Below are positions 1,035 to 28,090 of a stretch of DNA of 44,421 bases, in pieces. The translations under genes were made by a program, and so were the position numbers. The notes under the pieces were generated by a model. The model saw nothing but the letters and a program-made list of their open reading frames with translations, ran no database searches and was not told the origin of the DNA. This stretch comes from an uncultured Methanosarcinales archaeon (GTDB lineage: Archaea > Nanobdellota > Nanobdellia > Woesearchaeales > CAYZNE01): the NCBI GenBank assembly GCA_964405295.1, contig CAYONI010000001.1, positions 62,001 through 106,421 on the forward strand, given 5' to 3'. Each line of letters starts with the position of its first letter. Within the stretch, counting starts at the first letter, position 1.

Positions 1035-1037
1035 ATC

Positions 1038-2626: not shown

Positions 2627-2659
2627 AATTTATAAATTGCATAGATTATAGTATTCTTT

Positions 2660-3082: not shown

Positions 3083-3085
3083 TTT

Positions 3086-3721: not shown

Positions 3722-3831
3722 AATAGTGCTAAAGAGGCTTTATTTTAAAAAATTATTGTAAATATACTGAAAAATGCATAACTTTTATATATTATCATAT
3801 TATATTTTCTATAAGATTAACGGGGGGTAAA

Positions 3832-4359: not shown

Positions 4360-4372
4360 TAAGGAGGTAAAT

Positions 4373-4756
4373 ATGGCAAAACAAAATACATGGTATAAAT
4401 GTGAAGCATGTGGCAATATTGTCGCAGTTGTTAATGCAGGTCAAGGAGAACTTGTTTGTTGCGGTAAACCAATGGGTGAAATGAAAGTCCAATCAGTTGG
4501 TGATGAAGGGTATGAAAAACATGTCCCGATTGTAACAATTGATGGAAATAAAGTTCATGTTAAGATTGGCGAAGTTGCACATCCAATGGAAGATGCTCAT
4601 CATCTACAAGTTGTCCAAATTATTCGAGGGGAGGTAGTTGTAGAAGGTAAACGATTATATCCAGGTCATGAAACAGAAATTACATTTATTCTTGAAGAAA
4701 CTGAAGGAATAAAAGTAAGAGTAATATGTAATATCCACGGATTATGGATGAATTAG
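4373..4756 (+). CDS. dfx: Desulfoferrodoxin / superoxide reductase
   Basis: CEACGN..CCGKPM desulforedoxin domain, EKHVP, HPM, CNIHGLW; SD AAGGAGG before ATG 4373. Confidence 0.92.
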   Translation: MAKQNTWYKCEACGNIVAVVNAGQGELVCCGKPMGEMKVQSVGDEGYEKHVPIVTIDGNKVHVKIGEVAHPMEDAHHLQVVQIIRGEVVVEGKRLYPGHETEITFILEETEGIKVRVICNIHGLWMN

Positions 4757-4768
4757 GGGTGTAAAATA

Positions 4769-4990
4769 ATGAAAAAACAAGTTATAGAAAAATTAGCAGT
4801 TTTAGTGACTACAGCTTTTGGGCTTGTTGCTGCTCTTGCATGGAATGGTGCTATTAAAGCAATTTTTTTAGAAATTTTTGGAACTTCTGAAGGGGTAGGA
4901 CCATTGTTAGTCTATGCTATTGTTGTAACAATTATTGCGGTTATTGTAACAATTAGTATTGGTAAAGCTGCAGATAAAGTAGCTAAATAA
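4769..4990 (+). CDS. Small two-helix membrane protein (DUF5654-like)
   Basis: TAFGLVAALAWN motif, two hydrophobic helices. Confidence 0.75.
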   Translation: MKKQVIEKLAVLVTTAFGLVAALAWNGAIKAIFLEIFGTSEGVGPLLVYAIVVTIIAVIVTISIGKAADKVAK

Positions 4991-4994
4991 TTTT

Positions 4995-5020
4995 GAGAAG
5001 TTTTTTCTTCTCTTTTTTTT
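4995..5020 (+). terminator. Hairpin plus U-tract terminator of rbr-dfx operon
   Basis: GAGAAG-TTTTTT-CTTCTC followed by T8. Confidence 0.55.
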
Positions 5021-5023
5021 AAA

Positions 5024-5683
5024 ATGAAAACTGACATTGATTCTATTTACAAAATTCTGAATAAAACAGTTAAAGGCTATCAGGTTCCGATTGTTGACTT
5101 AATTGAAGCAAGAACAAAAGATCCTTTTAAGATTCTTGTGGCAACACTTCTTTCTGCAAGAACTAATGACAAGACAACTTCTATTGTTTGTAAAAAACTT
5201 TTTGCAAAAGTTAATTCTGCTAAAGATTTAGAAAAGTTAACAGTTAAACAAATTGAAAAACTTATTTACCCTATCGGATTTTATAGGAATAAGGCAAAAC
5301 ACCTAAAACTGTTACCTGTTGTTCTAAAAGAAAAGTTCAACAATAAGGTTCCACATACTATTGAGGAATTAATTGAACTTCCCGGTGTTGGTAGAAAAAC
5401 TGCAAATCTTGTGATGGCTGTTGCATTCAAGATTCCTGCAATCTGTGTTGATGTCCATGTTAATAGGATAATGAACCGGTTTGGTTATATTAAGACAAAA
5501 AATCCTCTTGAAACAGAGATGGTTTTAAGAAAAAAGCTTCCAAAAAAATATTGGTTAAAAATTAATTATGTTATTGTTGCATTTGGCCAGAATCTTTGTA
5601 AACCTATAAACCCTCGGTGTGATGTTTGCCCTGTCTATAAATATTGTAAGAGAGTTGGTGTTAGGACTAAGTATAATAAATAA
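5024..5683 (+). CDS. nth: Endonuclease III
   Basis: LLSARTND, HhH LPGVGRKTAN, VDVHV, C-X6-C-X2-C-X5-C 4Fe-4S motif. Confidence 0.95.
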   Translation: MKTDIDSIYKILNKTVKGYQVPIVDLIEARTKDPFKILVATLLSARTNDKTTSIVCKKLFAKVNSAKDLEKLTVKQIEKLIYPIGFYRNKAKHLKLLPVVLKEKFNNKVPHTIEELIELPGVGRKTANLVMAVAFKIPAICVDVHVNRIMNRFGYIKTKNPLETEMVLRKKLPKKYWLKINYVIVAFGQNLCKPINPRCDVCPVYKYCKRVGVRTKYNK

Positions 5684-5709
5684 TTTAAGGTTATAGAATA
5701 GATGTTTAA

Positions 5710-5952
5710 TTAAAGTAAACCCACAATTTGATAGATTTGCGTTCTAATAAATGGTTGTAGAGAACTATCATTTGATACTTCATCAAGTATGATTTCTGCT
5801 TTATGTACTCTAGTTTCTTGTGATTCACCTTGGTTATTTAGAATTAGTATAATATTATCAATTTTTGATTTTAAATTTTTAGGGATCCCAACTTCTTGTT
5901 TTAGCATTTTTAATGCTCCTATAACTTCTGCAAATTCCATTTTCATTACCAA
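5710..5952 (-). CDS. UPF0147 family protein
   Basis: IPKN..LDEVSND..PFIRTQIY pattern; follows prefoldin. Confidence 0.75.
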   Translation of the reverse strand: MVMKMEFAEVIGALKMLKQEVGIPKNLKSKIDNIILILNNQGESQETRVHKAEIILDEVSNDSSLQPFIRTQIYQIVGLL

Positions 5953-5958
5953 TCATTA

Positions 5959-6288
5959 TTATTTCCCTTTTTCAATGCTAAGATTTGACATTATATCTTT
6001 TTGCATTTTCTCAGCTTTCTCTTTTAGCTTTTCTTCTTGCTTTTCAAAAGATTTAATTCTAACACCCAAAACTTCTTTCTTTTTTTTAATATCTTCTATA
6101 AGGTTTTTCTTGGTAGAATTTATCATTATATTACCAACAATTTTGTAAGCATTGTCGGTTTTATCGATTGCTTCAAGTGCAGATTCATATTCAGATAATT
6201 GTGTAACAAATTGTTGTTTTTGTGCGCTAATATTAGCAACATTTTGTTGTAACATTGATAGTTCTTGAATCATATTTTCATTTGTCAT
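5959..6288 (-). CDS. pfdB: Prefoldin beta subunit
   Basis: Coiled coil-hairpin (AYKIVGNIMI)-coiled coil; conserved operon position. Confidence 0.88.
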   Translation of the reverse strand: MTNENMIQELSMLQQNVANISAQKQQFVTQLSEYESALEAIDKTDNAYKIVGNIMINSTKKNLIEDIKKKKEVLGVRIKSFEKQEEKLKEKAEKMQKDIMSNLSIEKGK

Positions 6289-6289
6289 T

Positions 6290-6517
6290 TTATTCCTTTA
6301 CAACGCTTTTGGTTTGATAATAAACAGAAAGCATTGTTGTTATGCCGTTAATGCTCGCTCTTAATGAAACAATATCTTTACTTTCAATAATTATTAATAA
6401 TTTTTTGTTTTGTTCTTCAAATGTTGTTCTACTTGTTTTTGCGTCGAAATTATCCACACTTAGCAATTTCTTAATTGATTCAATATCTTCAGTAATTTCA
6501 ATTGTAGTCTTAAACAT
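6290..6517 (-). CDS. pcc1: KEOPS subunit Pcc1
   Basis: IIESKDIVSLRASIN motif; between rpoP and pfdB. Confidence 0.8.
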   Translation of the reverse strand: MFKTTIEITEDIESIKKLLSVDNFDAKTSRTTFEEQNKKLLIIIESKDIVSLRASINGITTMLSVYYQTKSVVKE

Positions 6518-6518
6518 T

Positions 6519-6656
6519 CTACCTTGCTTTTACTTTTGTTATTGTGCTTCTTGGTTTGAAGATTATTTTACTTCCACAGTACGGACATCTAACTCTTTTT
6601 TTTATATATCTGTCAGAAATTTGCTTACCGCAATTAAAACATTTATAGTTTGCCAT
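6519..6656 (-). CDS. rpoP: RNA polymerase subunit P (Rpo12); absent from the ORF track
   Basis: Manual translation MANYKCFNCGKQISDRYIKKRVRCPYCGSKIIFKPRSTITKVKAR (45 aa); SD GGAGG; follows rpl37ae. Confidence 0.92.
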   Translation of the reverse strand: MANYKCFNCGKQISDRYIKKRVRCPYCGSKIIFKPRSTITKVKAR

Positions 6657-6671
6657 ATTTGCCTCCAAATC

Positions 6672-6917
6672 TTACTCTTCAACTTTTTCTTTTAATTTAG
6701 GCATCTTATCAACGAAATATGCTTTGCTTGTAAATTTAGCATTACACTTTCCGCATTCCCAAATTCCTAAATTAATTTTTTTAACTTTCTTGAATTGACA
6801 ATAAGGACATTTATATGTTTTCTTTTGTTGCGCTTCAATTTTTCCTAATTTAAATCTTGTAGTTCTTCCATATCTAGAACCCAATCTTCTTGTTGTACCA
6901 GCTTGTTTTGTTGCCAT
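6672..6917 (-). CDS. rpl37ae: 50S ribosomal protein L37Ae (eL43)
   Basis: GSRYG, CPYC..GIWECGKC Zn ribbon. Confidence 0.93.
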   Translation of the reverse strand: MATKQAGTTRRLGSRYGRTTRFKLGKIEAQQKKTYKCPYCQFKKVKKINLGIWECGKCNAKFTSKAYFVDKMPKLKEKVEE

Positions 6918-6951
6918 TTTATTTTACCTTTTTGATAATTATTTTAGGATA

Positions 6952-7026
6952 TGGGGCTGCCCAGATTCGAACTGGGGTCTTCTGGTCCCAAACCAGAGAG
7001 GATGGACCAGGCTACCCTACAGCCCC
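6952..7026 (-). tRNA. tRNA-Pro (UGG)
   Basis: GGGGCTG acceptor, TCTGG-TT-TGG-GA-CCAGA anticodon arm, GTTCGAAT T-loop; no encoded CCA. Confidence 0.95.
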
Positions 7027-7144
7027 ATTATGAATATATGTGTAGGAATAATATTTCCTTTTAAAAGCTTTCGCTTTAGAATTTGACTTTCTATCCCCTA
7101 AAAAACCATAAAGTATTTAAAAATAGGTTGTATTTGCATTATTT

Positions 7145-8305
7145 ATGGTTAGTTCAAAAACAAATAGTAAGAATACTACTGAATCAGCTAAGGATGAGTT
7201 ATATTCCTATAGTACTGATGAGAGTGGTCTTGAGAGTGAAAACAAACTTCTTAGAGAAACAGTTATGCAACTAAGAGATGAAGTAAATAAGATGATGATG
7301 CCTCCATTGATGGTTGCAGAAGTATCTGAGGTATTAAATAATAATGTTTTAATACAAATTCCTAATGGAAATAAATTTTATGTTAACAAGTTAAATACAG
7401 TTAAAAACATTAAATCTGGTGACACAATTCTTGTTGAACAAAAGAATTTAACTGTTATTGAAAAAATAAATTCAAATAAAAAGTTTAATGTTGAAAAATT
7501 CTTAATAATAGAAAAACCAATTATTACTTTTAATGATATTGGTGGCTTAAAAAAAGAAGAGCGGGAAATAAAAGAAGTCATTGAACTTCCGCTGAAGAAA
7601 CCTGAGCTCTTCAGAAAAGTAGGTATAAAACCTCCGAAGGGAGTTTTATTATATGGGCCTCCTGGAACTGGAAAAACTTTACTTGGTAAAGCTGTTGCAA
7701 ACTCAACAAACAGCACATTTATTGAAATTGTTGGTTCTGAGCTTGTACAAAAATTTATTGGTGAAGGTGCAAAGCTTGTTAAGGAAATTTTTGAGTTAGC
7801 AAGAGAAAAGGCTCCGTCTATCGTTTTTATTGATGAGCTTGATAGTCTGGCTGCAACTAGAATGGAAGTTGGTACTTCAGGAGAAAGAGAAGTTCAGAGA
7901 ACTTTTATGCAATTGCTTGCTGAGATTGATGGTTTTAATAATCTTGATGATGTGAAAATAATTGGTTGCACCAACAGAAAAGATATTCTTGATCCTGCAA
8001 TCACACGTCCAGGTAGATTAGACAGATTAATATCTGTAAGTAATCCTGATAAAGAAGGAGTAATAGAGATATTCAAGATACACAGTAAAAGAATGAAGCT
8101 TGAAAAGGGATTTAATTACGATAAAATCTATAAAAAGTTAGAAGGTTGTTCAGGTGCAGAGATTCATGCTATGTGTACTGAGGCAGGTTACTTTGCAATT
8201 AGAAAAAATAGATTTGTTGTTTCTTTGAAAGATTTTGAAGCTGCAATTGACAAGGTTAAGCAAGCTGAAGATGATGATAAGAACTATGTTAAGATGTTTG
8301 GATAG
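7145..8305 (+). CDS. pan: Proteasome-activating nucleotidase
   Basis: Coiled coil-PP-OB fold, [38 protein letters not shown]-terminal MFG. Confidence 0.95.
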   Translation: MVSSKTNSKNTTESAKDELYSYSTDESGLESENKLLRETVMQLRDEVNKMMMPPLMVAEVSEVLNNNVLIQIPNGNKFYVNKLNTVKNIKSGDTILVEQKNLTVIEKINSNKKFNVEKFLIIEKPIITFNDIGGLKKEEREIKEVIELPLKKPELFRKVGIKPPKGVLLYGPPGTGKTLLGKAVANSTNSTFIEIVGSELVQKFIGEGAKLVKEIFELAREKAPSIVFIDELDSLAATRMEVGTSGEREVQRTFMQLLAEIDGFNNLDDVKIIGCTNRKDILDPAITRPGRLDRLISVSNPDKEGVIEIFKIHSKRMKLEKGFNYDKIYKKLEGCSGAEIHAMCTEAGYFAIRKNRFVVSLKDFEAAIDKVKQAEDDDKNYVKMFG

Positions 8306-8429
8306 AGAACATTGTAAAAGTCATTGTTAAATGATTTGACGATGTTATCTTCCGAGAACGCTTGAAAAATTAGTGTTTCAAAGTTGTCGATAGTTAAAAT
8401 TTATAAAATAAACATCTTTTTCTTAATTT

Positions 8430-9644
8430 ATGACTGATTTACAATACAGCAACATAAAATTCGTAGATTTTGATGAAGAAAGAATCAAAGTTATCTTCAA
8501 ACAAAGATACTACTTTTTTCTAGATAAGGCAATGTTAATAAAGCGTATTGGCAAGTTTGAAATAAATAAAGAAGATAGTTCTATAATTATTTTTAATGCT
8601 CCTTTAAAGCGATCGCAAACAAGATTTGAGATGTCTATAGAGCAAGGACTTGATAATTTATATAATACTAATAAAGATAAGAAAACTGAATATATCTATG
8701 ATGGCGTTGCTCCATTAATTGGAACAAATGAGTTTGGTATAGTTGATAGAAATACTTCTATTCTAGAGATAAAGATGTTGACTGGTTGCAATCTGAGTTG
8801 TGTTTTTTGTTCAGTAAGTGAGGGTGATAATGCTAAAATTGATTATCTTGTTGAGCCTGACTATCTTGTATTAGGGATTGCAGATTTGGTTAAGATTAAA
8901 AAATCTAAATCAATAGAAATTAATATTGGCCCTCAGGGAGAGCCATTACTTTATCCTGATCTTTGTTATTTAATTGAAGAACTAAAAAAAGTTCCTAAGA
9001 TTGATATTATTTCAATGAATACCAACGGCAGATTATTAACAAAAGATTTCATAGATGAATTAATTGAAGCGGGTTTAGACAGAATTAATGTTTCTCTTCA
9101 TAGTATGAATGAGGAAACTCAGAAAAAACTTTCTGGTTCTGCCATGTCTATTTCTAATTTTAAAGAGTTAGTTAATTATGCTAAAGATAGAATAGAGATA
9201 TTCTTAGCGCCAGTTTATATTCCTAAACTCAATGAAGACATTGAACCTCTTATTGAGTTTGCTAAATCTTATAAAACAGGCCCGAGATTAATGGGCATCC
9301 AGAATTTCTTAAATTATAAGGGTGGAAGAAACCCTGTTAAACAAATTAGTTTTGATGATTTCTATGCAATGCTTGCTAGACTTGAGAAAAAGCATGATGT
9401 TAAATTAAAGCTTAACCCTGAAGATTACAATATTGTTGAAGATAAGGTTTTAGAAAAGCCCTTCAAAAAAGGTCAAACAGTTAACGCAGTAATTAAACTT
9501 CCTGGCAGAAGAAACCATGAAGTGATTGCAGAGGCAAAGGATAGATCAATCACTGTTTATGATTGCAAGTTTGAAGAGGGCAAAGAAATTCGAGTCAAAT
9601 TGACTCGTGATAAACACAACATATTTTCTGGGAGCAGAGTTTAG
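8430..9644 (+). CDS. Radical SAM protein with C-terminal TRAM-like domain
   Basis: CNLSCVFC, QGEPLLY, TNG; C-terminal beta-barrel-like segment. Confidence 0.85.
   Translation: MTDLQYSNIKFVDFDEERIKVIFKQRYYFFLDKAMLIKRIGKFEINKEDSSIIIFNAPLKRSQTRFEMSIEQGLDNLYNTNKDKKTEYIYDGVAPLIGTNEFGIVDRNTSILEIKMLTGCNLSCVFCSVSEGDNAKIDYLVEPDYLVLGIADLVKIKKSKSIEINIGPQGEPLLYPDLCYLIEELKKVPKIDIISMNTNGRLLTKDFIDELIEAGLDRINVSLHSMNEETQKKLSGSAMSISNFKELVNYAKDRIEIFLAPVYIPKLNEDIEPLIEFAKSYKTGPRLMGIQNFLNYKGGRNPVKQISFDDFYAMLARLEKKHDVKLKLNPEDYNIVEDKVLEKPFKKGQTVNAVIKLPGRRNHEVIAEAKDRSITVYDCKFEEGKEIRVKLTRDKHNIFSGSRV
9603..9644 (+). repeat. Direct repeat copy 1 (3' end of radical SAM gene)
   Basis: 38/42 nt identical to 10100-10141. 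Confidence 0.9.
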
Positions 9645-9691
9645 AGGAATATATAATTAATTTTATAAATATCTACGTTGGTTAGTGTGTT

Positions 9692-10081
9692 ATGATAAGA
9701 TATATAGTTTTCTTTTTTGCATCCGGATTTTTAGGATGGTGTATTGACTCTTTATATTGTTCTTTTATTGAAAAGAAGTGGGTGTCTAATACTCATACAA
9801 AATTCTTTTCACCTACTTACGCGATAGGAGGTTTGATTTTAATATTTATCTTTGAAAATTTAAAACTGCATTTTATACTACAATTAATTATTGCAACAAT
9901 CTTATTAACTTTATTAGAATTAGTTTCAGGAATATTTTCAGAAAAGGTAATGAAGAGAAGGTATTGGAATTATTCAGATAGTAAATGGAACTATAAAGGT
10001 TACATTGATGCTTTACACGCATTCTTTTGGTTGGTATTATCTATTATTGTTAAAATAATATTCTTATATTTGCCGATATAA
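9692..10081 (+). CDS. Four-helix membrane protein (putative ABC transporter type IV / DUF1113-like)
   Basis: FLGW, P.YAIGG, LELVSG, YWNYS..WNYKGYI motifs. Confidence 0.75.
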   Translation: MIRYIVFFFASGFLGWCIDSLYCSFIEKKWVSNTHTKFFSPTYAIGGLILIFIFENLKLHFILQLIIATILLTLLELVSGIFSEKVMKRRYWNYSDSKWNYKGYIDALHAFFWLVLSIIVKIIFLYLPI

Positions 10082-10099
10082 AAATATTAGATTAAGCTA

Positions 10100-10141
10100 A
10101 CTCGTGATAAACACAATATATTTTCTGGGAGTAGGGGTTAG
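10100..10141 (+). repeat. Direct repeat copy 2 (orphan copy of radical SAM gene 3' end)
   Basis: Encodes TRDKHNIFSGSRG* versus TRDKHNIFSGSRV* in copy 1. Confidence 0.9.
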
Positions 10142-10147
10142 AATAAA

Positions 10148-10849
10148 TTAAAACAAATTCAGCTTAAAATAATCAATCAATGAAACTCCTTTCTTATCTA
10201 TTTTAAGATTAATTTGCCAGTTTTCAAGTCCTCGTTTTGTGGCTTTTTTAACTACTTTTGCTATTTCTGTATTCGAGCTTTTAGGTGGTTGAAACCTCTC
10301 TGCCTTATACACAAAACATAGTAGTGCAATTGCTCTTTGACCTTTTTTTATTTGAAGTGAGATATCTTGAAAGTGTCTGCTCAACCTTTCAAATGAATTA
10401 AACTTAGTGTTTGGCTTTTTTTTGTTTCCAAAAGGAAGATGCATCAGTGGTGTTTTGACTTCTAGAAAGCAATTGTTGTTTACTAGAAAGTCAATCCTGG
10501 AAGTGTTTAATTTAACTTCTCTTTTTACTTCTTTGGCATCAATCATTTTGCTGAGAAGATTATTTTTCAGAAAGAATTCTATGTATTTATTTGCTTTTGT
10601 TTGATTTATGCCAACCCAGATTTTTGCTTTTGGTGAAATTGCTTCCACTGTATATTTGGTTTTTCTTGCTGGGTTTTTAGATTCTGAAAGTAGGCAGGGT
10701 ATGTCTTCAAATTCTATATTGCCAATTCTGCCTGTTGATGGGCAATGACATTTTTCTAGATTGCCATCAATTTCAACCATCATTATGAATCGATTGGGTC
10801 TTGACTTAATCAATCCCTGAATCAATTCTTCATCAAATAGATATTTCAT
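10148..10849 (-). CDS. sfsA: SfsA family nuclease
   Basis: RPNRF, HCPSTGR, RKTKYT, SRIDFL..FLEVK PD-(D/E)xK core. Confidence 0.88.
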   Translation of the reverse strand: MKYLFDEELIQGLIKSRPNRFIMMVEIDGNLEKCHCPSTGRIGNIEFEDIPCLLSESKNPARKTKYTVEAISPKAKIWVGINQTKANKYIEFFLKNNLLSKMIDAKEVKREVKLNTSRIDFLVNNNCFLEVKTPLMHLPFGNKKKPNTKFNSFERLSRHFQDISLQIKKGQRAIALLCFVYKAERFQPPKSSNTEIAKVVKKATKRGLENWQINLKIDKKGVSLIDYFKLNLF

Positions 10850-10935
10850 GTATCAACTGACCTGTAAGGTTATTAATAAGTTTTTGGTTCAGAATAATCC
10901 TAAAGCTTATATACTATTCTTGATTTCTCTGTTTT

Positions 10936-11523
10936 ATGATTGATGACAGATGGTATGAAGGGCCGACTCCAGAGGAATATAATTTTGGTTTTGATATTCG
11001 GATTGAAAATGAAGATATGAAGGGAAATCCTATTCTAGTTACTAAAAGAAATATTCCTAAATTAGTTTCATCGTTAAATGAGAAAGGTATTGAGATTGTT
11101 AAATCTTTATCTGCGCTTAGGATAATAAAGCGTGGAAATGAAACCATGGCCACTTTTAAGTATAAACATCTGCAAGGTAATGTTGTCGCTAGTTGTTACT
11201 TGGATTTAGGGTTTGGTATTTTTCTGTCTTTGATTAATAATTTCCAATCGAAAAATAATTGGTTATATGGCCCGCATATTAACGCAACTTTAGGCTATGA
11301 ACTTAATCATTCATCTATGGGCAAGGTAAAGCTTAGTAAAATTCCCGATTACTTAAGGGAGTCTTTTTCTGGTTTAGAAAAGCCGGTTCTCAAATCCTTA
11401 GACGAAGTTTTCCATGGGGAGATAAGTGAATCTTTCAAAAATCAGGTAGAGTTTCATGCACAAAAAAGTCTGATATATACAGATTGTAAAATGTTAGATA
11501 CTTGTTTAGATTTGTATGAATAA
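10936..11523 (+). CDS. Hypothetical protein
   Basis: 195 aa ORF with upstream CTTATATA box; no motif recognised. Confidence 0.65.
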   Translation: MIDDRWYEGPTPEEYNFGFDIRIENEDMKGNPILVTKRNIPKLVSSLNEKGIEIVKSLSALRIIKRGNETMATFKYKHLQGNVVASCYLDLGFGIFLSLINNFQSKNNWLYGPHINATLGYELNHSSMGKVKLSKIPDYLRESFSGLEKPVLKSLDEVFHGEISESFKNQVEFHAQKSLIYTDCKMLDTCLDLYE

Positions 11524-11539
11524 TAAAATAAAAAAAGAC

Positions 11540-12460
11540 CTACTTTTTCTTTTTCTTAGTTTTCTTAATCTCTTTCTCAAGATCAAGTTTATCAAGAAGT
11601 TCCTTGTATCTGTTTCTGATTGTAACTTCTGTGACTCCTGCAATATCTGCGACTTCTCTTTGAGTTCTCTTTTCACCATTGATTAGAGCTGCAACATATA
11701 GTGCTGCTGCTGCAATTCCTGTTGGACCTCTTCCAGAAGTTAACTCAACTTTTTGAGCTTGCTCAATTATTTCCACAGATTTTGACTGAGATTCAGCGCT
11801 TAATCTTAGAGCAGATGCAAATCTTGCAATGTAATCTGCAGGATTTGAAGGTAAGATAGTAATACATAGTTCTCTTGTTATGAACCTGTAAGTTCTTCCA
11901 ATTTCTTTTCTTTCGATTCCAGAAGCTTCAGATAGTTCATCAAGTGTTCTTGGTAGCTCGAATCGTCTGCATGCAGCGTATAAAGCTCCTGCAACCACTG
12001 ATTCCATGCTTCTACCCCTTACAAGGCCTTTTTGCACAGCCATAGTGTAGATCTTTGATGCTTCTTCTTCTACTGATCCTGATAATTTCAAGAATGAAGA
12101 TACTCTTTTAAGTTCAGATAGGGCTAATTTAAGATTTCTTTCAATTGCAGTTGAGATTCTTTGTTGCCATTTTCTCAATCTCATGAATTTGTTCTTATTT
12201 CTGCCTTTTAATTGATAAATATCAGATTTATGACCAATGTCTGTTCCAAGACCTCTATCATACTGAGTATAGGTCATAGGAGCTCCAGATCTTCGTTTCC
12301 TAGCTGATTCATCAGCATCGAAGCTTCTCCATTCTTGGTCAAAGTCGATCATTTTTTCTTCTACAACTAGACCGCAGTCTTTGCAAATGATCTCTCCTTT
12401 TTCTTTATTCCAGAATAAATTTATTCCCCCACATTCGGGACATTTCTTTACAAAAGCCAT
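11540..12460 (-). CDS. tfb: Transcription initiation factor IIB
   Basis: CPECG..CKDCG Zn ribbon, EWRSF B-reader, two cyclin repeats, TEVTIRNRYKEL. Confidence 0.97.
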   Translation of the reverse strand: MAFVKKCPECGGINLFWNKEKGEIICKDCGLVVEEKMIDFDQEWRSFDADESARKRRSGAPMTYTQYDRGLGTDIGHKSDIYQLKGRNKNKFMRLRKWQQRISTAIERNLKLALSELKRVSSFLKLSGSVEEEASKIYTMAVQKGLVRGRSMESVVAGALYAACRRFELPRTLDELSEASGIERKEIGRTYRFITRELCITILPSNPADYIARFASALRLSAESQSKSVEIIEQAQKVELTSGRGPTGIAAAALYVAALINGEKRTQREVADIAGVTEVTIRNRYKELLDKLDLEKEIKKTKKKKK

Positions 12461-13202: not shown

Positions 13203-13961
13203 ATGTTAACAAAAGAAGAGAGCGCAGAATTTAAGGATTCTATAGGTAATGCATTAAAAAGAAAAGAAACAATTGTTTTGTTGGCTTATTCTTCAATAAG
13301 TTATAGTGGTAGGGCAGAAGCTACATTGGATTATGGAGACAGGATAATAATTATTAAACCTGATAAAACTTTTCTTGTTCACCAGCCAACAGGAAGTAAT
13401 GCAGTTATTTATATGAAGCCAGGATCCCAAATTGAGATATCTGAAGAAGATGGTGAACTTATACTTCAATCTTCAAATATGACCCTTCATGAGCTTGTCG
13501 AAGTTAGAATAAAGAAAATAATAAATATTTCTTCTGCAAGCCTCACTGATTCTGAAAAAGTTCAATTATTTGGAACAGAAAAAGATATGTCTGATTATAT
13601 TTATGATAACCCTGAAATTATTAGCAAAGATTTTAAACCTGTTTCAAGAGAAGAACAAACAAAACATGGGTATATTGACGTTTTTGGGCATGACAAAAAA
13701 GATAATCTTGTAGTTATTGAGTGTAAGAGAGTGAAAGCAGGACCTGGTGCACCTCAACAATTGAGAAGATACATTGAAAGACTTTCAAAAAGTAAAGGTA
13801 TACCTTCAAATAGAATAAAGGGTATTGTTGCTGCACCAAATATTACAAAGAATGCAGAGCATATGTTACAAGAGTTAGGATATGAATTTAAAAAGATCGA
13901 TCCGCCTGCATATCTTAAAAGAAAGAAAGAAAGTCAGCATAGATTAGATAAGTTTTGCTAA
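13203..13961 (+). CDS. nucS: Mismatch endonuclease NucS/EndoMS
   Basis: YSGRA, IIKPD..LVH, EKDM, GYID..VIECKR, QLRRY. Confidence 0.92.
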   Translation: MLTKEESAEFKDSIGNALKRKETIVLLAYSSISYSGRAEATLDYGDRIIIIKPDKTFLVHQPTGSNAVIYMKPGSQIEISEEDGELILQSSNMTLHELVEVRIKKIINISSASLTDSEKVQLFGTEKDMSDYIYDNPEIISKDFKPVSREEQTKHGYIDVFGHDKKDNLVVIECKRVKAGPGAPQQLRRYIERLSKSKGIPSNRIKGIVAAPNITKNAEHMLQELGYEFKKIDPPAYLKRKKESQHRLDKFC

Positions 13962-17579: not shown

Positions 17580-19625
17580 ATGAAGATAAACAAGATAATT
17601 CTTGAGAATATAAGATCTTATAAGAAAGAAGAAGTTGTTTTTGATAGTGGAATAACTCTTCTAAGTGGAGATATCGGCTCTGGTAAAACTACCACTCTAA
17701 TTGCAATAGAATTTGCACTCTTTGGCCTTATAAAAGGAAAGGTGAGTAGTGATTCCCTTCTAAGGCACGGTTCTAATCATGGAAGTGTTTTGGTTGATTT
17801 TAATCTAAATAACAAAAATATTATTATCAAACGATCGCTTGTTAAGTCAGGAACAACTATTAAGCAAGAGCCAGGAACTTTAGTTGTTGATGGTGTTGAG
17901 GAAACGTTAACACCTCAAGAACTTAGAGCAAGACTTGTTGAGTTGTTGGGTTATCCTTCTGAGTTTGTCAGTAAAAGCCCTGCAATTATTTATCGTTATA
18001 CGGTTTATACTCCTCAAGAAGATATGAAACTAATTCTTTTTGAGAGTTCTGATTCTAGATTGGAAACTATCAGAAAAATATTTGATATTGATAAATATAA
18101 AATTATAAGAAATAATGTTTCAACTTATTTGAAAGAATTAAATGCAAGGATTAGAGAGGGCAAAGCAAAAACTGCAGATGTAGATAAGCTTCATCTAAGA
18201 ATTGAAGAGATAGAAAAAGAAAAGGTTTTACTTTCTGGAAAGATTGAGGATTTATCAAAAAAGATAACTGCTAAAGATGGTGAAGTGAGAGTTTTAAATT
18301 CTGAGATAAATAAGTTAGATGAAAAAATTCTAGAACAACATACTTTAAGGCAGAAAATTGTTATATGCAACACAAAGATTTCTTCTTTTAATTCACAAAA
18401 AATTTCTATTCTTAAACAAATAAGTGATATTGAAGAAAAAATAAAACAAAAGCCAAATCTTGACATCCCTGATATTGAAGTTTTAACTAAGAGATTAACT
18501 AGTTTTGAGGAAAGTAAAAAAGAGATTTCTGATAAAAAGCAGGATTATCTAAATAAAAAAGCAGTTCTTGATTCAAGGTTAAAAGAGACAACCAATATGG
18601 TTGATAAGATTTCTGCACTTGGGACATGCCCTACTTGTAAACAAGAAGTTCTTGAAGAGCACAAGGTTTCAATTAAGGATCAAGAAAAAGAAAAGATTGA
18701 CAACATACAAGACAAATTAGATAAGCTCTCCTTAATTATTCCCAGGTTTGATGAAAAAATTGGTGTTGCAAATATTAAAATCAAAGAGTTTCAAGAGTCT
18801 ATTAACCAAGCAAAGATGGACAAATTAAAGATTGCAACTTATAGCGAGCGTTTAAGCATGAGAACTGATTTTGAGTCAACCATAGAGAAAATTAATGATG
18901 ATCTTATTGTAGAAAAAGAGAGGCTTGTAAAATTTTCTGCGAAACAGGATATAAATCTGACAAAGGTTCATGATGAGAAAAAGAAACTTTTCAAAGAAAA
19001 GCAAAATGAGCTTAAGAACTTAGAGATTAATGCAGCATCTAATAAAAAAGAGTTTGAGATGAAGCAAGAATTAATTGTTTCTGTAAAAAATGATCTTGAT
19101 GAGAAAAAACTCATACTTGAGAAGATTGTTAAGCAAGCGACTCTGAGAAATTGGTTAGATGCTTTTTTCCTGAAGCTTATGCAAACAATGGAGAGATATG
19201 TTCTAAATAGTATCCTAAAAGAATTTAATGAATATTTTAAAGAGTGGTTTGGAATGTTAATTGAAGATGAGAATCTTTCTGTAAGATTAGATGATTCGTT
19301 CACTCCAATTATTGAGCAAAATGGTTATGAGAATCTTGTTCAGAATCTTTCTGGTGGTGAAAAAACAAGTGTTGCTCTTGCATACAGACTGGCATTGAAT
19401 AAAGTTATTAATGATTTTGTTTCAACAATTAGAACTAAGGGCTTGCTTATTCTTGATGAGCCCACTGATGGTTTTTCTTCTAATCAACTCGATAAGCTTA
19501 GGGATGTTTTAATGCAGATAAAGTCTGAACAGATAATAATTGTTAGTCATGAGAGTAAGTTGGAAAGTTATGCTGATAAATTAATTAAAATTTCAAAAGA
19601 GCATCATGTCAGTTGTGTTAATTAA
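17580..19625 (+). CDS. rad50: Rad50 (SMC-family ATPase with Zn hook)
   Basis: LENIRSY, GDIGSGKTT, Q-loop, CPTC hook, LSGGE, LILDEPT, VSHE. Confidence 0.88.
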   Translation: MKINKIILENIRSYKKEEVVFDSGITLLSGDIGSGKTTTLIAIEFALFGLIKGKVSSDSLLRHGSNHGSVLVDFNLNNKNIIIKRSLVKSGTTIKQEPGTLVVDGVEETLTPQELRARLVELLGYPSEFVSKSPAIIYRYTVYTPQEDMKLILFESSDSRLETIRKIFDIDKYKIIRNNVSTYLKELNARIREGKAKTADVDKLHLRIEEIEKEKVLLSGKIEDLSKKITAKDGEVRVLNSEINKLDEKILEQHTLRQKIVICNTKISSFNSQKISILKQISDIEEKIKQKPNLDIPDIEVLTKRLTSFEESKKEISDKKQDYLNKKAVLDSRLKETTNMVDKISALGTCPTCKQEVLEEHKVSIKDQEKEKIDNIQDKLDKLSLIIPRFDEKIGVANIKIKEFQESINQAKMDKLKIATYSERLSMRTDFESTIEKINDDLIVEKERLVKFSAKQDINLTKVHDEKKKLFKEKQNELKNLEINAASNKKEFEMKQELIVSVKNDLDEKKLILEKIVKQATLRNWLDAFFLKLMQTMERYVLNSILKEFNEYFKEWFGMLIEDENLSVRLDDSFTPIIEQNGYENLVQNLSGGEKTSVALAYRLALNKVINDFVSTIRTKGLLILDEPTDGFSSNQLDKLRDVLMQIKSEQIIIVSHESKLESYADKLIKISKEHHVSCVN

Positions 19626-20364
19626 TTTCTATGTGTGCAATTATTGGAAAGTGATCTGAAACATAAGGGGCTTTAATAATTTCTTTTGAAGAGATGATTA
19701 TATTCCCCTTTTTAGTTGCTAAAACATAATCTCTTTTTGTATCAGGTTCAACATATTTATTAGCTCGAGATTTGGTGTATGGATTTAGACTTGAACGAGA
19801 TATTTCTTCTGTAGGTTTATCTGCATACTTAAATAAATTATTTATTTTCATAAATGCTTCTTCCCTCAGGTCTAAATCACCAACAAGGATTGCTTTTTCA
19901 TCTCCTATTCTTTCTTCTAATAATTTAAATTGGTCTTTGGTAATAACTTCTTTGGATTCATTTGATGGATAATATAAGTGTGTATTGTAGATAAATATGT
20001 TGCCTTCCAGCTCAATTTTATGATACCCTTTTTTGGTTACTTTTGTTGTTAATTCACTTGCGTTATTAGAAGGGAACTGGTTTGTTTCTCTAGATATGAT
20101 TTCAAGATCGCTTCTTTCTGAAGATACACCTGTAATAAGACCATCTCTTTCATACCATGGATCGTTTGATGTAACAAAGTCATATTTCTTTAATTCCTCT
20201 TTGAATAAATTAATATACTTTTTTGTCCAAACCTCTTGTAGTGTAATAATATCTGGATTGGTATCTTTTATTAAAGAAATGATTTCTGCTGCTCTTTTCT
20301 TCTTGTCTGTGGAAAGAAGACTAGGAAGAAGCCAACAATTTAGGTTGAATATCTTAACATCCAT
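19618..20364 (-). CDS. Endonuclease/exonuclease/phosphatase family protein
   Basis: NLN, DIITLQEV, NTHL, GDLD, DYV, SDHFP. Confidence 0.88.
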   Translation of the reverse strand: MDVKIFNLNCWLLPSLLSTDKKKRAAEIISLIKDTNPDIITLQEVWTKKYINLFKEELKKYDFVTSNDPWYERDGLITGVSSERSDLEIISRETNQFPSNNASELTTKVTKKGYHKIELEGNIFIYNTHLYYPSNESKEVITKDQFKLLEERIGDEKAILVGDLDLREEAFMKINNLFKYADKPTEEISRSSLNPYTKSRANKYVEPDTKRDYVLATKKGNIIISSKEIIKAPYVSDHFPIIAHIEIN

Positions 20365-20840: not shown

Positions 20841-20882
20841 ATCTCTATGTAGGCACTTATTATTTATAAACTTTTCTATTAT

Positions 20883-20902
20883 TAGTTACTTAAAAGTAGT
20901 AA
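20883..20902 (-). promoter_or_regulatory. 8-4-8 palindromic element, copy 1
   Basis: Minus strand TTACTACT-TTTA-AGTAACTA, 12 nt, then TTTATAAA. Confidence 0.6.
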
Positions 20903-20956
20903 CAAGAAGGGTGCAATAACATTTATAAAGAAAATCGTTTTCCATAGACTTGTTAT

Positions 20957-21031
20957 AGCGGAGTGGGGCAGTCAGGAGTGCCCGGAGGGCTCATAACCCT
21001 CAGGTCAGTGGTTCAAATCCACTCTCCGCTA
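20957..21031 (+). tRNA. Initiator tRNA-Met (CAU)
   Basis: A1-U72 pair, GAGGG/CCCTC anticodon stem with three consecutive G-C pairs, CAT anticodon; TATA at 20922. Confidence 0.95.
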
Positions 21032-21347
21032 TTTCTTCTTTATCAAGTTCTTTGCGTTGTTTCCTGAGAATTTCTATTTGATCGTCTATTTGTTTTGTTA
21101 GTTGTCTCTTGTCTTCAATGCTTTCTGGCATCCTTAATATCTCTAGTCCGTTCTCTTTAAGAATCTCGTTGGCTTTTTGTATTTTTCGTTTTAGTATCTT
21201 ATTCCTTTCTGTTGCAACATCAAGTTTATCTTTAACTTGTATTATATATTCTGTTCCTAATTTTAAAAGTCCTGCGTGCACATGTCCGGGTTTTATCCTA
21301 AAACAAAAACTGTTTCCAGATCTTGCTAGTTTTGCTTTTAGCTCCAT
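21000..21347 (-). CDS. AbrB/MazE-like DNA-binding protein with coiled-coil tail
   Basis: KLARSGNSFCFRI swapped-hairpin-like N-terminus; last codons run antisense into the tRNA 3' half. Confidence 0.6.
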   Translation of the reverse strand: MELKAKLARSGNSFCFRIKPGHVHAGLLKLGTEYIIQVKDKLDVATERNKILKRKIQKANEILKENGLEILRMPESIEDKRQLTKQIDDQIEILRKQRKELDKEEIAESGFEPLT

Positions 21348-21455
21348 TTTTTGTTTAGCTCCTTGTTGTGGAATACAGAAAAGAATACTTATATATAAAT
21401 GTTACGCTGATTGTTCCTCTACTTTTTATGTTACGCTATGTGTTACCCTATATGT

Positions 21456-21683
21456 ATGGATAAAGAAGAATTTCAAATATTTTTAGCAAGAAGTAAGTTA
21501 AGACAAATTGTCTATAAAAAGCTACAAGAGAAGCCACAGATAGCTTCATTCCTTGCAAAAGAGCTAAAGAAGCACAGAGAGTCTATATCTAGAGTGTTTA
21601 AAGACATGGAGAGAATAGGCTTAGTAAAGTGCCTTAACAAAGAAGATCCTCACTTTAGGAAGTATAGTTTGGTTAAGAAGTGA
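21456..21683 (+). CDS. Winged-helix transcription regulator (ArsR/MarR-like)
   Basis: RSKLR..PQIASFLAKEL..ESISRVFKDMERIGLVKC; start moved to ATG 21456. Confidence 0.8.
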   Translation: MDKEEFQIFLARSKLRQIVYKKLQEKPQIASFLAKELKKHRESISRVFKDMERIGLVKCLNKEDPHFRKYSLVKK

Positions 21684-21737: not shown

Positions 21738-22805
21738 TTAATATTTATTTATTATCTCCTTTAGATGTTCTAAAAATTCATCTGCATCTAGAAAATAATT
21801 TGGATATGCTTTTTCTAAATCCGTTGAAGTATCTGCACTTACAAGGACGACATCATATTCTTTTTTCCCTTTATTCTTTTTTTCTATTTCAGAATATTTT
21901 TTTATTGCTTCTGACTCTTCACTTTTAGTATAAGAAATAATGGTTAATTTTTCTTCTGGAATGTTTAGTTCTAATAGGTAGTATTGGTATTTTTTATTTT
22001 TTCTGCTTTCCTCTTTAAAAATTTTAAGAGCCCGTCTCCAACCTCTCATTATTTTAATTACTTTTAATTGGCTTTCTTTTTGTTTGATTTGTAAATATAA
22101 CTCTTTTTCGTCAGTGGGAGTATCTTTAATACAAGGACAATTTTCAATTAATGCAAAAGCTGAACTAACTAGTTTAAAAAAATCTAACCAATCAGTATCT
22201 GCTTCACTTGATTTAATTGCTTGACTAATAAAAAAACCTACTGTTTCAACAGCAGTTGACCATAGGTGTTGTAACCTTGATCTTATTTGGATTTCCACAA
22301 GAAGACCATTGTAAATATTTTTCCCTTTATCACTATAAAATTTATATATTAGATGCAAACCTCTGTACCCTGAGTGTCTAGGCTTTGTAATAAAATCTTT
22401 TTCAGTGTACCTTTTATGTTTTAACTCACTTTTTATAAAGTAATCTTGAGCAAATTTTTTAACCAAACTAACATCTGATAATACTGCGCGACAGCCGCCA
22501 ATATCTTGCATTTGAGAAAGGGTTAGTTTCCGCATATGACCTATTTTGCTTCTGTTTAGTTTATTTATTATTGCTGGAATACGTTTTAAACGCTGAACAC
22601 CAAACCCTTCATTGTCAATATTTGGTAATTTTCTTTTTAATCGCATCTTAAAAACATGCATTGGATAGCTATGTATTGCTCTCCAATTATCTAAAATTTC
22701 GAATGCTTTATTATACTCTTCCGCAGTATGATTGTCATTAATTAATACTTCTCCTGCCCAATCTATTTCTTTTGAATTATATCCTTTGGGTTCTCTCCAT
22801 TTCAT
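21738..22805 (-). CDS. RelA/SpoT-domain protein, fused CapRel-type toxin-antitoxin
   Basis: NWRAIH.YP, QRLKR..I..KL, MQDIGGCR, SGYRGLH, EIQIRS.LQH.W.TAVE, C-terminal DVVLVS..L..AYPNYF; no HD hydrolase domain. Confidence 0.8.
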   Translation of the reverse strand: MKWREPKGYNSKEIDWAGEVLINDNHTAEEYNKAFEILDNWRAIHSYPMHVFKMRLKRKLPNIDNEGFGVQRLKRIPAIINKLNRSKIGHMRKLTLSQMQDIGGCRAVLSDVSLVKKFAQDYFIKSELKHKRYTEKDFITKPRHSGYRGLHLIYKFYSDKGKNIYNGLLVEIQIRSRLQHLWSTAVETVGFFISQAIKSSEADTDWLDFFKLVSSAFALIENCPCIKDTPTDEKELYLQIKQKESQLKVIKIMRGWRRALKIFKEESRKNKKYQYYLLELNIPEEKLTIISYTKSEESEAIKKYSEIEKKNKGKKEYDVVLVSADTSTDLEKAYPNYFLDADEFLEHLKEIINKY

Positions 22806-22887
22806 AAGCCCAAAAGAAGATTATCTTAATTATAAATCTTTTGGTTTGCGCACTTTCCCATTTCACAAATAGAATTTTTTTTATATT

Positions 22888-23040
22888 TTAATTTGGGCGC
22901 TTATTTTTTCTGGGTTTATTCCAATAGGGGCTTTTGCATTTTGGACATATTATCGGGATTTTTCTTTTATTTCTTGGTATCCAAGTATATTCACATCGCT
23001 CACATCTATATCCTGTCAAAGTTACTTTAATTTCTGCCAT
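22888..23040 (-). CDS. Small Zn-ribbon protein; absent from the ORF track
   Basis: Manual translation MAEIKVTLTGYRCERCEYTWIPRNKRKIPIICPKCKSPYWNKPRKNKRPN (50 aa); TATA ~20 nt upstream. Confidence 0.8.
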   Translation of the reverse strand: MAEIKVTLTGYRCERCEYTWIPRNKRKIPIICPKCKSPYWNKPRKNKRPN

Positions 23041-23241
23041 ATACTTATATAAGTATAACCTATATATAAATGTTTTGGGGAAATAATTTGACTATTTGCA
23101 CATAAAGTTTATCTATCAAAACTATGTTTATATAAGTAAGGTGAAATCTTTGGTAGGTTTTCAAGTTAGTATGGCTTTCTTATTTAATAGAATCTTCAAC
23201 CAAACTATTTATAAACAAAAGCTTCATTAATAGATTATTAT

Positions 23242-23274
23242 GGCGGGTCAGTGGTTCAAATCCACTCTCCGCTA
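23242..23274 (+). pseudogene. Internally deleted tRNA-Met copy (acceptor plus T arm) / attR
   Basis: GGCG joined to tRNA 3' half; upstream sequence resembles the tRNA-Met promoter. Confidence 0.6.
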
Positions 23275-23370
23275 TTATTTCTTTTTAGATTTGAACTTGT
23301 TCCGTAGCGTATCAGAATTTGAATATTTTTTGAGAACTATTTGGCTTAATGTGTTTAGTGTTTTAGTTAA

Positions 23371-23661: not shown

Positions 23662-23703
23662 ACTATAGATATTTTAGCTTTTATTTATAAGCTTTTCTGT
23701 TAT

Positions 23704-23723
23704 TAGTTACTAGTAAGTAGTAA
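23704..23723 (-). promoter_or_regulatory. 8-4-8 palindromic element, copy 2
   Basis: Minus strand TTACTACT-TACT-AGTAACTA, 12 nt, then CTTATAAA. Confidence 0.6.
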
Positions 23724-23775
23724 AAAGAATCAAAAGTCCAGTTATTTTATAAATGTCACTAGCTTTACTAGGAGT

Positions 23776-27658: not shown

Positions 27659-28090
27659 TTATATTTTGTAGACTAATTTTATACAAAAATCCTCATCTTC
27701 AATTAAAGGCATTTTCAGAGCTTCCTTTGGTGTTGCCCATTTGAAATCTTTATGTTCTTCGTTGTTTATTGTTACGGTCTGTTCTTCAGTTAGTTTTGTG
27801 GTAAATATATGATAGATAAAATCGAATTCAGGAAATTTTACATATAATTTTGTGATATAGGAAAATTGTTCTGAGGGTATTTTTAATCCTGTTTCTTCTT
27901 GAAATTCTCTGATTACTGAATCAATAAGTTCTTCCCCTTGGTCAACTTTGCCTGCAGGAACTCCCCAGGTGTTGCCTTGAGGTTTGTGGTCTTGTCTATG
28001 AAGAAGTAACATTTTCCCCTTATGATCAACATAACAACTAACAATTTCAAATTTAGGACTAAATCCTGATGGCTTTTCTTTGTAAATCAT
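27659..28090 (-). CDS. NUDIX hydrolase
   Basis: GKVDQGE......REFQEETG Nudix box. Confidence 0.92.
   Translation of the reverse strand: MIYKEKPSGFSPKFEIVSCYVDHKGKMLLLHRQDHKPQGNTWGVPAGKVDQGEELIDSVIREFQEETGLKIPSEQFSYITKLYVKFPEFDFIYHIFTTKLTEEQTVTINNEEHKDFKWATPKEALKMPLIEDEDFCIKLVYKI

Follow-up and report, generated by a model that had tools for sequence, protein, structure and literature searches.

The gene and its product

The 44,421-nucleotide (nt) stretch of DNA analyzed here, referred to as the window, comes from contig CAYONI010000001.1 (positions 62,001 to 106,421) of an archaeon that was deposited as an uncultured member of Methanosarcinales and is placed in Woesearchaeales by GTDB. It carries on its reverse strand a gene, termed the CapRel gene below, for a 355-residue protein in which a RelA/SpoT-type toxin domain (toxSYNTH) is followed by a C-terminal pseudo-zinc-finger module, the layout of the fused CapRel proteins of bacteria. 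The open reading frame (ORF) and its stop codon span 21738..22805. The ATG at 22805 is the earliest start of a 360-codon open frame and is the right one, since homologues align from residue 1. The gene, its parts and its predicted promoter are located as follows.

21738..22805 (-), fused CapRel-family gene (toxSYNTH plus pseudo-zinc-finger antitoxin/sensor), assigned by the PADLOC profile PDC-S33, PDB entries 7ztb/9erv and Foldseek
22611..22805 (-), N-terminal three-helix extension, residues 1–65; model helices 11–22, 28–43 and 46–63
22221..22610 (-), toxSYNTH catalytic core, residues 66–195, with R72, R106, G-loop Y147 and E171-x-Q173-x-R175; Pfam RelA_SpoT at 71–184
22002..22220 (-), linker or 'anchor' helices, residues 196–268; model helices 204–220, 233–247 and 249–267
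21831..22001 (-), pseudo-zinc-finger, residues 269–325, the presumed sensor; model strands 273–281 and 286–293, helix 294–310, strand 317–323
21795..21806 (-), YPNY (Y334-P-N-Y337), the YXXY neutralization motif, at the hinge between the last two helices
22829..22836 (-), TATA-like box TTTATAAT, at -31..-24 from the ATG, with an A-rich stretch before the box

The synthetase and C-terminal motifs quoted for the 355-residue protein in an earlier reading of the DNA (the original prediction) are all present: QRLKR (71–75), MQDIGGCR (99–106), SGYRGLH (145–151), EIQIR (171–175) followed by QHLW, DVVLVS (318–323) and KAYPNYF (332–338). The sole Pfam domain is the RelA_SpoT synthetase (residues 71–184, E = 6.6e-15), in agreement with the claim that a hydrolase domain is absent.

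The TATA box that the original prediction took as a sign of expression is present, and its motif is enriched at gene starts. TTTAWAW occurs at -40..-18 in 15 of the 50 ORF starts of the window (70% A+T), compared to 9.6% of random intergenic 22-nt segments and 3.0% of all random 22-nt segments. The box TTTATAAT at 22829..22836 is a plausible promoter of the local type, from which the mRNA would probably be leaderless or nearly so; a box by itself is no proof of expression.

Family membership and predicted fold

Four kinds of comparison, based on profiles, a sequence search of the PDB, pairwise alignment and fold, place the protein in the fused CapRel family rather than among ordinary small alarmone synthetases. 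The PADLOC candidate-defense profile PDC-S33 matches residues 1–353 (E = 5e-114). To learn what this unnamed profile stands for, we scanned CapRelSJ46, taken from the GenBank record of Salmonella phage SJ46, against PADLOC; it matches PDC-S33 (E = 7e-87) and no other PADLOC profile, so that both proteins fall under the same profile. PHROG 4773, a phage family whose function is not known, matches the full length of the 355-residue protein (E = 6.8e-91). A phmmer search of the PDB gives 7ztb/9erv as top matches (E = 2.3e-40, residues 11–349), followed by RelQ/RelP-type enzymes at E = 5e-8 and worse that cover only about residues 68–194. BLASTP aligns the protein to CapRelSJ46 with 29% identity over 353 columns and 95% of its length (E = 1e-42). 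The NCBIfam equivalog model for the YjbM GTP diphosphokinase (NF053588 GTPPhKinYjbM) scores 47.2 bits, against a cut-off of 320.

An AlphaFold2 model was built from 37 homologues, with a mean predicted local distance difference test (pLDDT) score of 79.9 and a predicted template modeling score (pTM) of 0.77. In a Foldseek search of the PDB with this model, 'Salmonella tRNA pyrophosphokinase CapRel' ranks first (7ZTB and 9ERV; template modeling (TM) score 0.70–0.75, 357–361 columns, E about 4e-23). The structural comparison suggested at the outset thus yields a match to 7ZTB along the whole chain (TM 0.72–0.75), and the CapRel-type identity claimed in the original prediction holds by profile, by pairwise alignment and by predicted fold. 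Alarmone synthetases of the RelQ/RelP type align over only 182–217 columns, with a TM score of about 0.4 on the query.

The correspondence extends to the individual parts of the chain. The N-terminal extension aligns to CapRelSJ46 residues 15–73, with NWRAIHSYP in place of NFRELHLYP. The region of three helices after the catalytic core aligns to CapRelSJ46 residues about 205–280, which have been described as an 'anchor' (PMC9712102). The domain that follows contains zero cysteines in residues 269–325 and has, in the model, the strand-strand-helix-strand topology described for CapRelSJ46 as a 'pseudo-zinc-finger' (PMC9712102). Helices 327–333 and 341–354 come after it. Together, the strand-strand-helix-strand unit (273–323) and these two helices form a module of about 85–90 residues, close to the C-terminal domain of ~90 residues that had been proposed.

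Conservation of mechanistic residues

The donor ATP of CapRelSJ46 has its adenine coordinated by R79 and R116, and Y155 is the G-loop tyrosine. The YXXY motif (Y352 and Y355) is predicted to insert between R79 and R116 when the protein is closed. Substitutions in the scaffold residues A77, V338, L339, A341 and A351 result in constitutive toxicity (all from PMC9712102). The equivalents in the 355-residue protein, read from the phmmer and BLASTP alignments, are listed below.

ATP-site arginines: R79 corresponds to R72, R116 to R106
G-loop tyrosine: Y155 corresponds to Y147
YXXY tyrosines: Y352 corresponds to Y334, Y355 to Y337
Scaffold, identical: V338 corresponds to V320, L339 to L321, A351 to A333
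Scaffold, changed: A341 corresponds to S323 (Gly in most clade members), A77 to V70

KAYPNYF is identical in the two proteins, and YPNY aligns with Y352/Y355 within it, which substantiates the YXXY autoinhibition motif of the original prediction. Apart from V70 and S323, the mapped residues show little or no variation among the 37 homologues, where E171-x-Q173-x-R175 and YPNY are invariant. Blocking of the donor site by a pseudo-zinc-finger domain (pZFD) with YXXY is the control mode of toxic small alarmone synthetases (toxSAS) that target tRNA; those that produce alarmones are blocked at the acceptor site (PMC11782079). Since the YXXY donor-site lock goes with the tRNA-targeting enzymes, its presence here argues, indirectly, for tRNA as the substrate.

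Genomic context

The CapRel gene stands alone. We clustered 728 ORFs located up to 4 kb from the gene at 80 related loci, and no neighbor family was shared by more than 5 of these loci. The neighbors in these loci include ribosomal-protein-like and other housekeeping-looking genes (judged from sequences alone). The single-protein layout that had been anticipated is consistent with this result, as there is no separate antitoxin partner.

A short gene upstream, encoding a 50-residue putative zinc ribbon (22888..23040), was considered as an obligatory partner and rejected. Its full ORF is found together with a CapRel gene in only 2 of 72 loci, in both cases directly upstream: in a metagenome-assembled genome (MAG) of Methanosarcinales (L023), where it is 72% identical, and in an Aenigmatarchaeota MAG (L051). 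A partial match is present in locus L016, and a distant one on the opposite strand in L036. The zinc-ribbon gene thus appears to be an occasional travelling companion.

A defense island around the gene was likewise rejected. PADLOC was run on 50 ORFs of the window, and its matches were read as generic, with two more that lie several kilobases away. The generic matches are to a Rad50/SMC-like ATPase, AAA+ ATPases and radical-SAM, E1-like, HIT and nicking-endonuclease-like proteins; partial matches to PDC-S11 are located at 13203–13958. A 143-residue ORF at 27662–28090 (-), about 5 kb from the CapRel gene, matches PDC-S07 (E = 2.5e-17). A 219-residue ORF at 5024–5680 (+), which does not adjoin the CapRel gene, matches a type II nicking-endonuclease profile (E = 4e-20).

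Insertion at a tRNA-Met gene

The CapRel gene is located in a 2.2-kb insert next to a tRNA-Met gene, with four ORFs (115, 90, 355 and 50 residues) between two copies of a direct repeat. Its remaining features are the following.

20956..21032 (+), tRNA-Met (CAT), the integration target, identified with ARAGORN; homology with G002, the closest relative genome, stops at 21032
21003..21041 (+), left direct-repeat copy, attL-like: last 30 nt of tRNA-Met plus flank
23246..23284 (+), right direct-repeat copy, attR-like: second copy of the tRNA-Met 3' end plus flank
21000..21347 (-), 115-residue ORF, insert cargo or spurious; its 3' end enters the tRNA repeat
21411..21683 (+), 90-residue winged-helix-like ORF, convergent with the CapRel gene
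22888..23040 (-), 50-residue CxxC...CxxC zinc-ribbon gene, upstream of the CapRel gene, with its own TATA box TTTATATATA at 23061..23070

The two repeat copies are 39 nt long and 95% identical, and their 31-nt exact core is present only twice in the assembly. G002, which belongs to the same genus, shares the gene order Rad50, signal peptidase, tRNA-Met ... Dus, with 77–88% nucleotide identity in the flanks. Homology between the two genomes ends at the 3' end of the tRNA (21032) and restarts at 23682; between these points, G002 contains two unrelated ORFs of 206 and 110 residues. The right repeat copy retains 10 nt that come after tRNA-Met in G002, and positions 23246–23286 are 92.7% identical to G002 4714–4753. 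The repeat and the break in homology are the marks that site-specific integration into a tRNA gene's 3' end leaves, here at a spot that varies in other ways too.

None of the four insert ORFs was found to belong to a recombinase or integrase family in Pfam (Zn_ribbon_recom reaches 17 bits, below its cut-off). The zinc-ribbon Pfam matches of the 50-residue ORF are all below cut-offs. The 90-residue ORF has only sub-threshold matches to winged helix-turn-helix families (HVO_A0261_N with 20.3 bits, TrmB and MarR) and was not found in 83 related loci. The 115-residue ORF matches no Pfam, PHROG or PADLOC family at threshold.

The tRNA-Met insert with its direct repeat, the other genes at this position in G002, and the patchy distribution described below indicate that the CapRel gene was acquired horizontally, as the original prediction had supposed. 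A tRNA-linked cassette was also considered as the general vehicle of these genes and rejected. A tRNA gene lies within 3 kb in 16 of the 80 related loci, about the chance level by a rough estimate, and a tRNA-derived repeat of at least 14 nt brackets the gene in 0 of these 16; the att-like structure is particular to the window.

Several further repeats were observed in and around the insert. A direct repeat of 49 nt (88% identical) is present at 20860–20908 and 23681–23729, in two divergent-promoter regions; the first copy lies upstream of the signal-peptidase gene and tRNA-Met, and the second upstream of a 96-residue ORF and Dus. It contains a TATA box and the inverted repeat GTTACT...AGTAAC, and the two regions may share it as a promoter or operator. 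Its second copy is precisely where homology with G002 restarts. A 17-nt TATA-containing motif (94% identical) occurs in two promoter regions of the insert (21387–21403 and 23058–23074), and a 23-nt unit (ATGTTACGC...) is repeated in tandem before the 90-residue winged-helix ORF (21399–21450); both may be insert-specific regulatory sites. Less than 2 kb from the insert is a second variable spot, flanked by Rad50 and the signal-peptidase gene. Here the window has a gene of the endonuclease/exonuclease/phosphatase family (19618–20364; Pfam E = 5e-7), and G002 has an unrelated 168-residue ORF at the same position (L015 3589–4095).

Distribution and phylogeny

Relatives of the protein are numerous, and the closest ones are mainly archaeal. 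Of 8000 candidates from a word-indexed protein search, 5835 have E ≤ 1e-3. The top 120 are all 353–385 residues long and 55–69% identical, and the taxa named among them are Woesearchaeota, Nanoarchaeota, Pacearchaeota, Micrarchaeota and one Patescibacteria. An exhaustive search of representatives clustered at 50% identity gave 4384 clusters with E ≤ 1e-3, of which 1303 reach E ≤ 1e-30; the close kin fall into very few of them, followed by a large tier of full-length proteins at 36–45% identity. Hundreds of public archaeal contigs label such relatives 'RelA/SpoT domain-containing protein'.

Among species-representative genomes, 521 stretches contain a relative, and the best 80 of the 521 are 49–64% identical. 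According to their record titles, in which MAG labels can be wrong, these 80 include Woese-, Nano-, Pace-, Micr-, Aenigmat-, Nanohalo- and Iainarchaea from DPANN, about a dozen Methanoperedens or Methanosarcinales MAGs, one Nitrososphaera, and nine bacterial records (Patescibacteria, Gracilibacteria, Saccharibacteria, two 'Gammaproteobacteria' MAGs and three others). Clade members that are 52–54% identical are found in a complete 1.9-Mb Gracilibacteria chromosome (L078) and in the two 'Gammaproteobacteria' MAGs L062 and L070. The bacterial records in the clade reflect either domain-crossing among ultra-small organisms or wrong MAG labels.

Closer to the window, the distribution is patchy. Matches come from 4 of the 61 genomes in the order, counting the window's own, and from 2 of the 4 in the genus, where the two copies are only 55% identical. 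In the phylum, 30 of 401 sampled genomes have a match (about 7%), all of them at least 90% complete. One genome has two, and 27 of the resulting 31 matches span 340 or more of the 355 residues. The remaining four comprise one 5'-truncated remnant and three short, weak matches. The remnant, a 104-residue ORF just downstream of a thermosome-like gene (L180, G223:C1, 2527–2841), consists of the anchor, pseudo-zinc-finger and YPNY part only and is 51% identical to residues 236–354. It starts at a methionine that is invariant in the clade (M253), and its frame is open for ~40 codons upstream, with residues 236–252 still matching. This ORF is probably a remnant that has lost its 5' part; it could also be a free antitoxin-like domain.

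Phylogenetic analysis (unrooted trees) separates most of the archaeal proteins from CapRelSJ46. In a FastTree phylogeny of 259 rows, the window protein falls into an 80-row set (support 99) that consists of 68 archaeal and 8 bacterial rows, 2 representatives, 1 contig from a viral collection and the window protein itself. The other side of this split contains CapRelSJ46, 136 representatives, 40 viral contigs, and one archaeal and one bacterial row out of the 78 archaeal and bacterial rows. A 'quick' IQ-TREE analysis of 88 rows, which comprised all 9 bacterial rows and a random draw of 30 of 69 archaeal, 35 of 138 representative and 12 of 41 viral rows, recovers the archaea-dominated clade with an SH-like approximate likelihood-ratio test (SH-aLRT) support of 99. 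The window protein is placed beside a Woesearchaeota sequence, and this pair is sister to two Methanoperedens sequences. The trees thus define a well-supported subclade dominated by archaea, with DPANN, Methanoperedens, Nitrososphaera and some ultra-small bacteria as its apparent members. The tree does not follow taxonomy, which argues that the gene moves between lineages.

Viral collections contain mostly distant relatives. IMG/VR has 155 stretches that encode a relative; of the 80 listed, 79 show 32–40% identity. Carriage of the archaeal clade by viruses was considered and rejected: the sole close IMG/VR contig (L096, 59% identical) has no virus hallmark among its 13 scanned ORFs. This contig, labeled GVMAG (1–11572), encodes uracil-DNA glycosylase (UDG), CARF-like/winged helix-turn-helix, RNase H, HEPN and DUF proteins, and is probably cellular archaeal DNA that ended up in a giant-virus bin. 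The only matches from the GenBank phage collection are SJ46 (two records) and one Escherichia phage, at about 30% identity.

Relationship to known systems

CapRelSJ46 of Salmonella phage SJ46 (7ZTB, and 9ERV with Bas11 Gp54) is the closest characterized counterpart. Both proteins are single polypeptides (355 vs 373 residues) whose parts are arranged alike, in this order: N-terminal helices, toxSYNTH, anchor helices, a Cys-free pseudo-zinc-finger, a YXXY hinge and a C-terminal helix. They share the ATP-site arginines, the G-loop tyrosine, the equivalents of V338, L339 and A351, the KAYPNYF segment, the PADLOC profile and the whole-chain fold. However, they are only 29% identical, and the archaeal sensor is shorter by 4 residues (at L280) and by 6 residues (b6-b7 loop). 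The host also differs, as does the vehicle, a tRNA-linked mini-insert rather than a prophage, and the 355-residue protein belongs to the separate archaea-dominated clade (support 99).

The bicistronic toxSAS systems, such as PhRel/ATphRel of mycobacteriophage Phrann (gp29/gp30), actinobacterial CapRel/ATcapRel and FaRel2/ATfaRel2, also have a toxSYNTH toxin and are likewise neutralized by a pZFD with YXXY at the ATP donor site; the tRNA pyrophosphorylation activity of CapRelSJ46 is also seen in FaRel2 and PhRel2 (PMC9712102, PMC11782079, bioRxiv 575399). In these systems toxin and antitoxin are encoded by separate genes, whereas in the archaeal protein they are fused and no partner gene is conserved. 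RelQ and RelP (YjbM/YwaC; 5DEC, 6EWZ) share the RelA_SpoT core (E = 1e-6 to 1e-8 by sequence and fold). They match 182–217 of the 355 residues and lack both the N-terminal helices and the C-terminal antitoxin module.

Bacterial CapRelSJ46 and related proteins have been studied in detail (PMC9712102, PMC11578894, PMC13423816, PMC11782079). Surveys of RelA/SpoT homologues (RSH) report CapRel from bacteria and describe RSH genes as sporadic in archaea (PMC3153485, bioRxiv 575399), and the word 'archaea' is absent from the 2022 Nature paper on CapRelSJ46 (PMC9712102). No archaeal CapRel appears in the titles and abstracts that we saw; the supplements of a 2024 survey of 8,973 archaeal genomes may count some. 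A literature search for the name PDC-S33 found no paper, and the text of the 2024 archaeal survey does not link CapRel and DPANN. The find is an extension of a known system rather than a new mechanism, and what it adds is a distinct, mobile, archaea-dominated clade.

Proposed function and alternatives

We propose, with a probability of roughly 0.7, that the product of the CapRel gene is an autoinhibited tRNA 3'-end pyrophosphokinase that is opened by a foreign (viral) protein and aborts the infection. The toxicity, the tRNA substrate, the closed/open switch and the viral trigger in this scheme are drawn by analogy with the bacterial proteins. In the resting state, the C-terminal pseudo-zinc-finger module would fold back on toxSYNTH, and YPNY (Y334, Y337) would lie between R72 and R106, where it blocks the ATP donor site. 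A foreign protein, by analogy a freshly synthesized archaeal-virus protein of the structural or early class, would bind to the C-terminal module and open the enzyme. The open enzyme would then move pyrophosphate from ATP onto the 3'-terminal CCA of tRNAs, resulting in a halt of translation and an aborted infection. The gene itself arrived by horizontal transfer, on the 2.2-kb integrase-free insert at the 3' end of tRNA-Met.

Several observations weigh against this proposal, the main one being the conservation of the sensor. In bacterial CapRels, the sensor is described as the least conserved region, which has been taken as the sign of an arms race; the SJ46 and Ebc CapRels, for example, are reported to be 70% identical overall and 47% identical in the C-terminal region. 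Mean pairwise identities within the archaeal clade (79 sequences, with two of the 80 loci dropped as truncated) are as follows.

toxSYNTH core, 0.71 (0.708)
C-terminal helices, 0.65
Anchor helices, 0.59
Pseudo-zinc-finger, 0.585
N-terminal helices, 0.55

The sensor domain is thus not hypervariable: it lies below toxSYNTH and no lower than the N-terminal helices. Because sensor and enzyme differ less here, the case for an arms race driven by viruses is weaker. In addition, L280 of CapRelSJ46, which is needed for capsid binding (PMC9712102), falls within the 4-residue deletion before strand b6, and the b6-b7 loop is 6 residues shorter. The trigger interface of the bacterial protein is therefore not conserved, and the trigger cannot be deduced from the bacterial examples. 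The YPNY hinge (329–337) has a pLDDT below 50 and is the lowest-confidence part of the model. Finally, there is the lack of a defense island.

The mobile location and the conserved sensor could also be explained by a selfish or conflict module that has no antiviral role and either stabilizes the mobile insert or senses a non-viral cue, such as a plasmid protein, a host-symbiont contact protein or stress. The gene is on a mobile insert at a tRNA gene with no defense island around it, and a sensor that is rather conserved across very different hosts would fit a conserved cue, which need not be viral. CapRelEbc is reported to require host FtsZ for activation (PMC13423816), which indicates that host factors can take part.

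In type II systems, post-segregational killing relies on an antitoxin that decays faster than the toxin. Such a difference in decay is impossible in a single polypeptide, which argues against stabilization of the insert by this route. Moreover, all experimentally studied fused CapRels act in phage defense (PMC9712102, PMC11578894), and more distant relatives (32–40% identical) are carried on 79 of the 80 IMG/VR contigs listed, as is the case for the prophage-borne CapRels of bacteria. We thus regard a selfish or non-viral role as unlikely.

A regulatory small alarmone synthetase, which would produce (p)ppGpp or (pp)pApp as the signal of a minimal stringent-type response, would account for the RelA_SpoT domain with its intact catalytic motif. 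The nearest NCBIfam model is indeed the YjbM GTP diphosphokinase, and some public records call relatives '(p)ppGpp synthetase'. However, the YjbM score of 47 bits is far from the cut-off of 320, and the RelQ/RelP structures match the core only, whereas CapRel matches the whole chain. The YXXY donor-site lock has been reported with enzymes that target tRNA (PMC11782079). A signaling enzyme also fits poorly with so sparse a distribution (30 of 401 genomes in the phylum; 2 of 4 in the genus, with copies that are only 55% identical). Furthermore, no hydrolase that would remove the alarmone was found. The window's own genome (1.27 Mb, 96.8% complete) contains a single RelA_SpoT domain and no match to the alarmone hydrolase family HD_4 (PF13328), which a control search detected in 10 of 14 reference genomes; the statement in the original prediction that archaea generally lack the canonical stringent response agrees with this result. 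A role in alarmone signaling is very improbable.

Least likely is a gene that was transferred in the past and has since fallen silent or lost its function. The lack of an integrase (lost if ever present) and the 5'-truncated remnant in another genome of the phylum would suit such a relic, but it is at odds with the intact, full-length frame, the retention of all catalytic and autoinhibitory residues, the local-type TATA box at the right distance, and a mean pairwise identity of 55–71% along the clade proteins in very different hosts, which indicates purifying selection.

Biological implications

An intact homologue that retains the mechanistic residues, and whose relatives are found in about 7% of the genomes of the phylum, suggests that a one-protein sensor and tRNA toxin probably acts against archaeal viruses. 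If the proposed autoinhibited pyrophosphokinase functions in this manner, abortive-infection switches in archaea would sense proteins directly. The clade as a whole may, more tentatively, be a virus-protein-sensing abortive-infection switch that circulates among DPANN, Methanoperedens, Nitrososphaera and bacteria of the candidate phyla radiation (CPR). Its unusually well conserved sensor may recognize one structural feature that is common to the viruses of very different hosts.

The make-up of the clade is a record of gene flow that links ultra-small archaea with methane-cycling archaea and with CPR bacteria. The protein that opens the switch would be a virus protein, so that the CapRel gene would be a practical means of approaching the viruses that infect uncultivated DPANN archaea, and of putting names to proteins of these almost unknown viruses.

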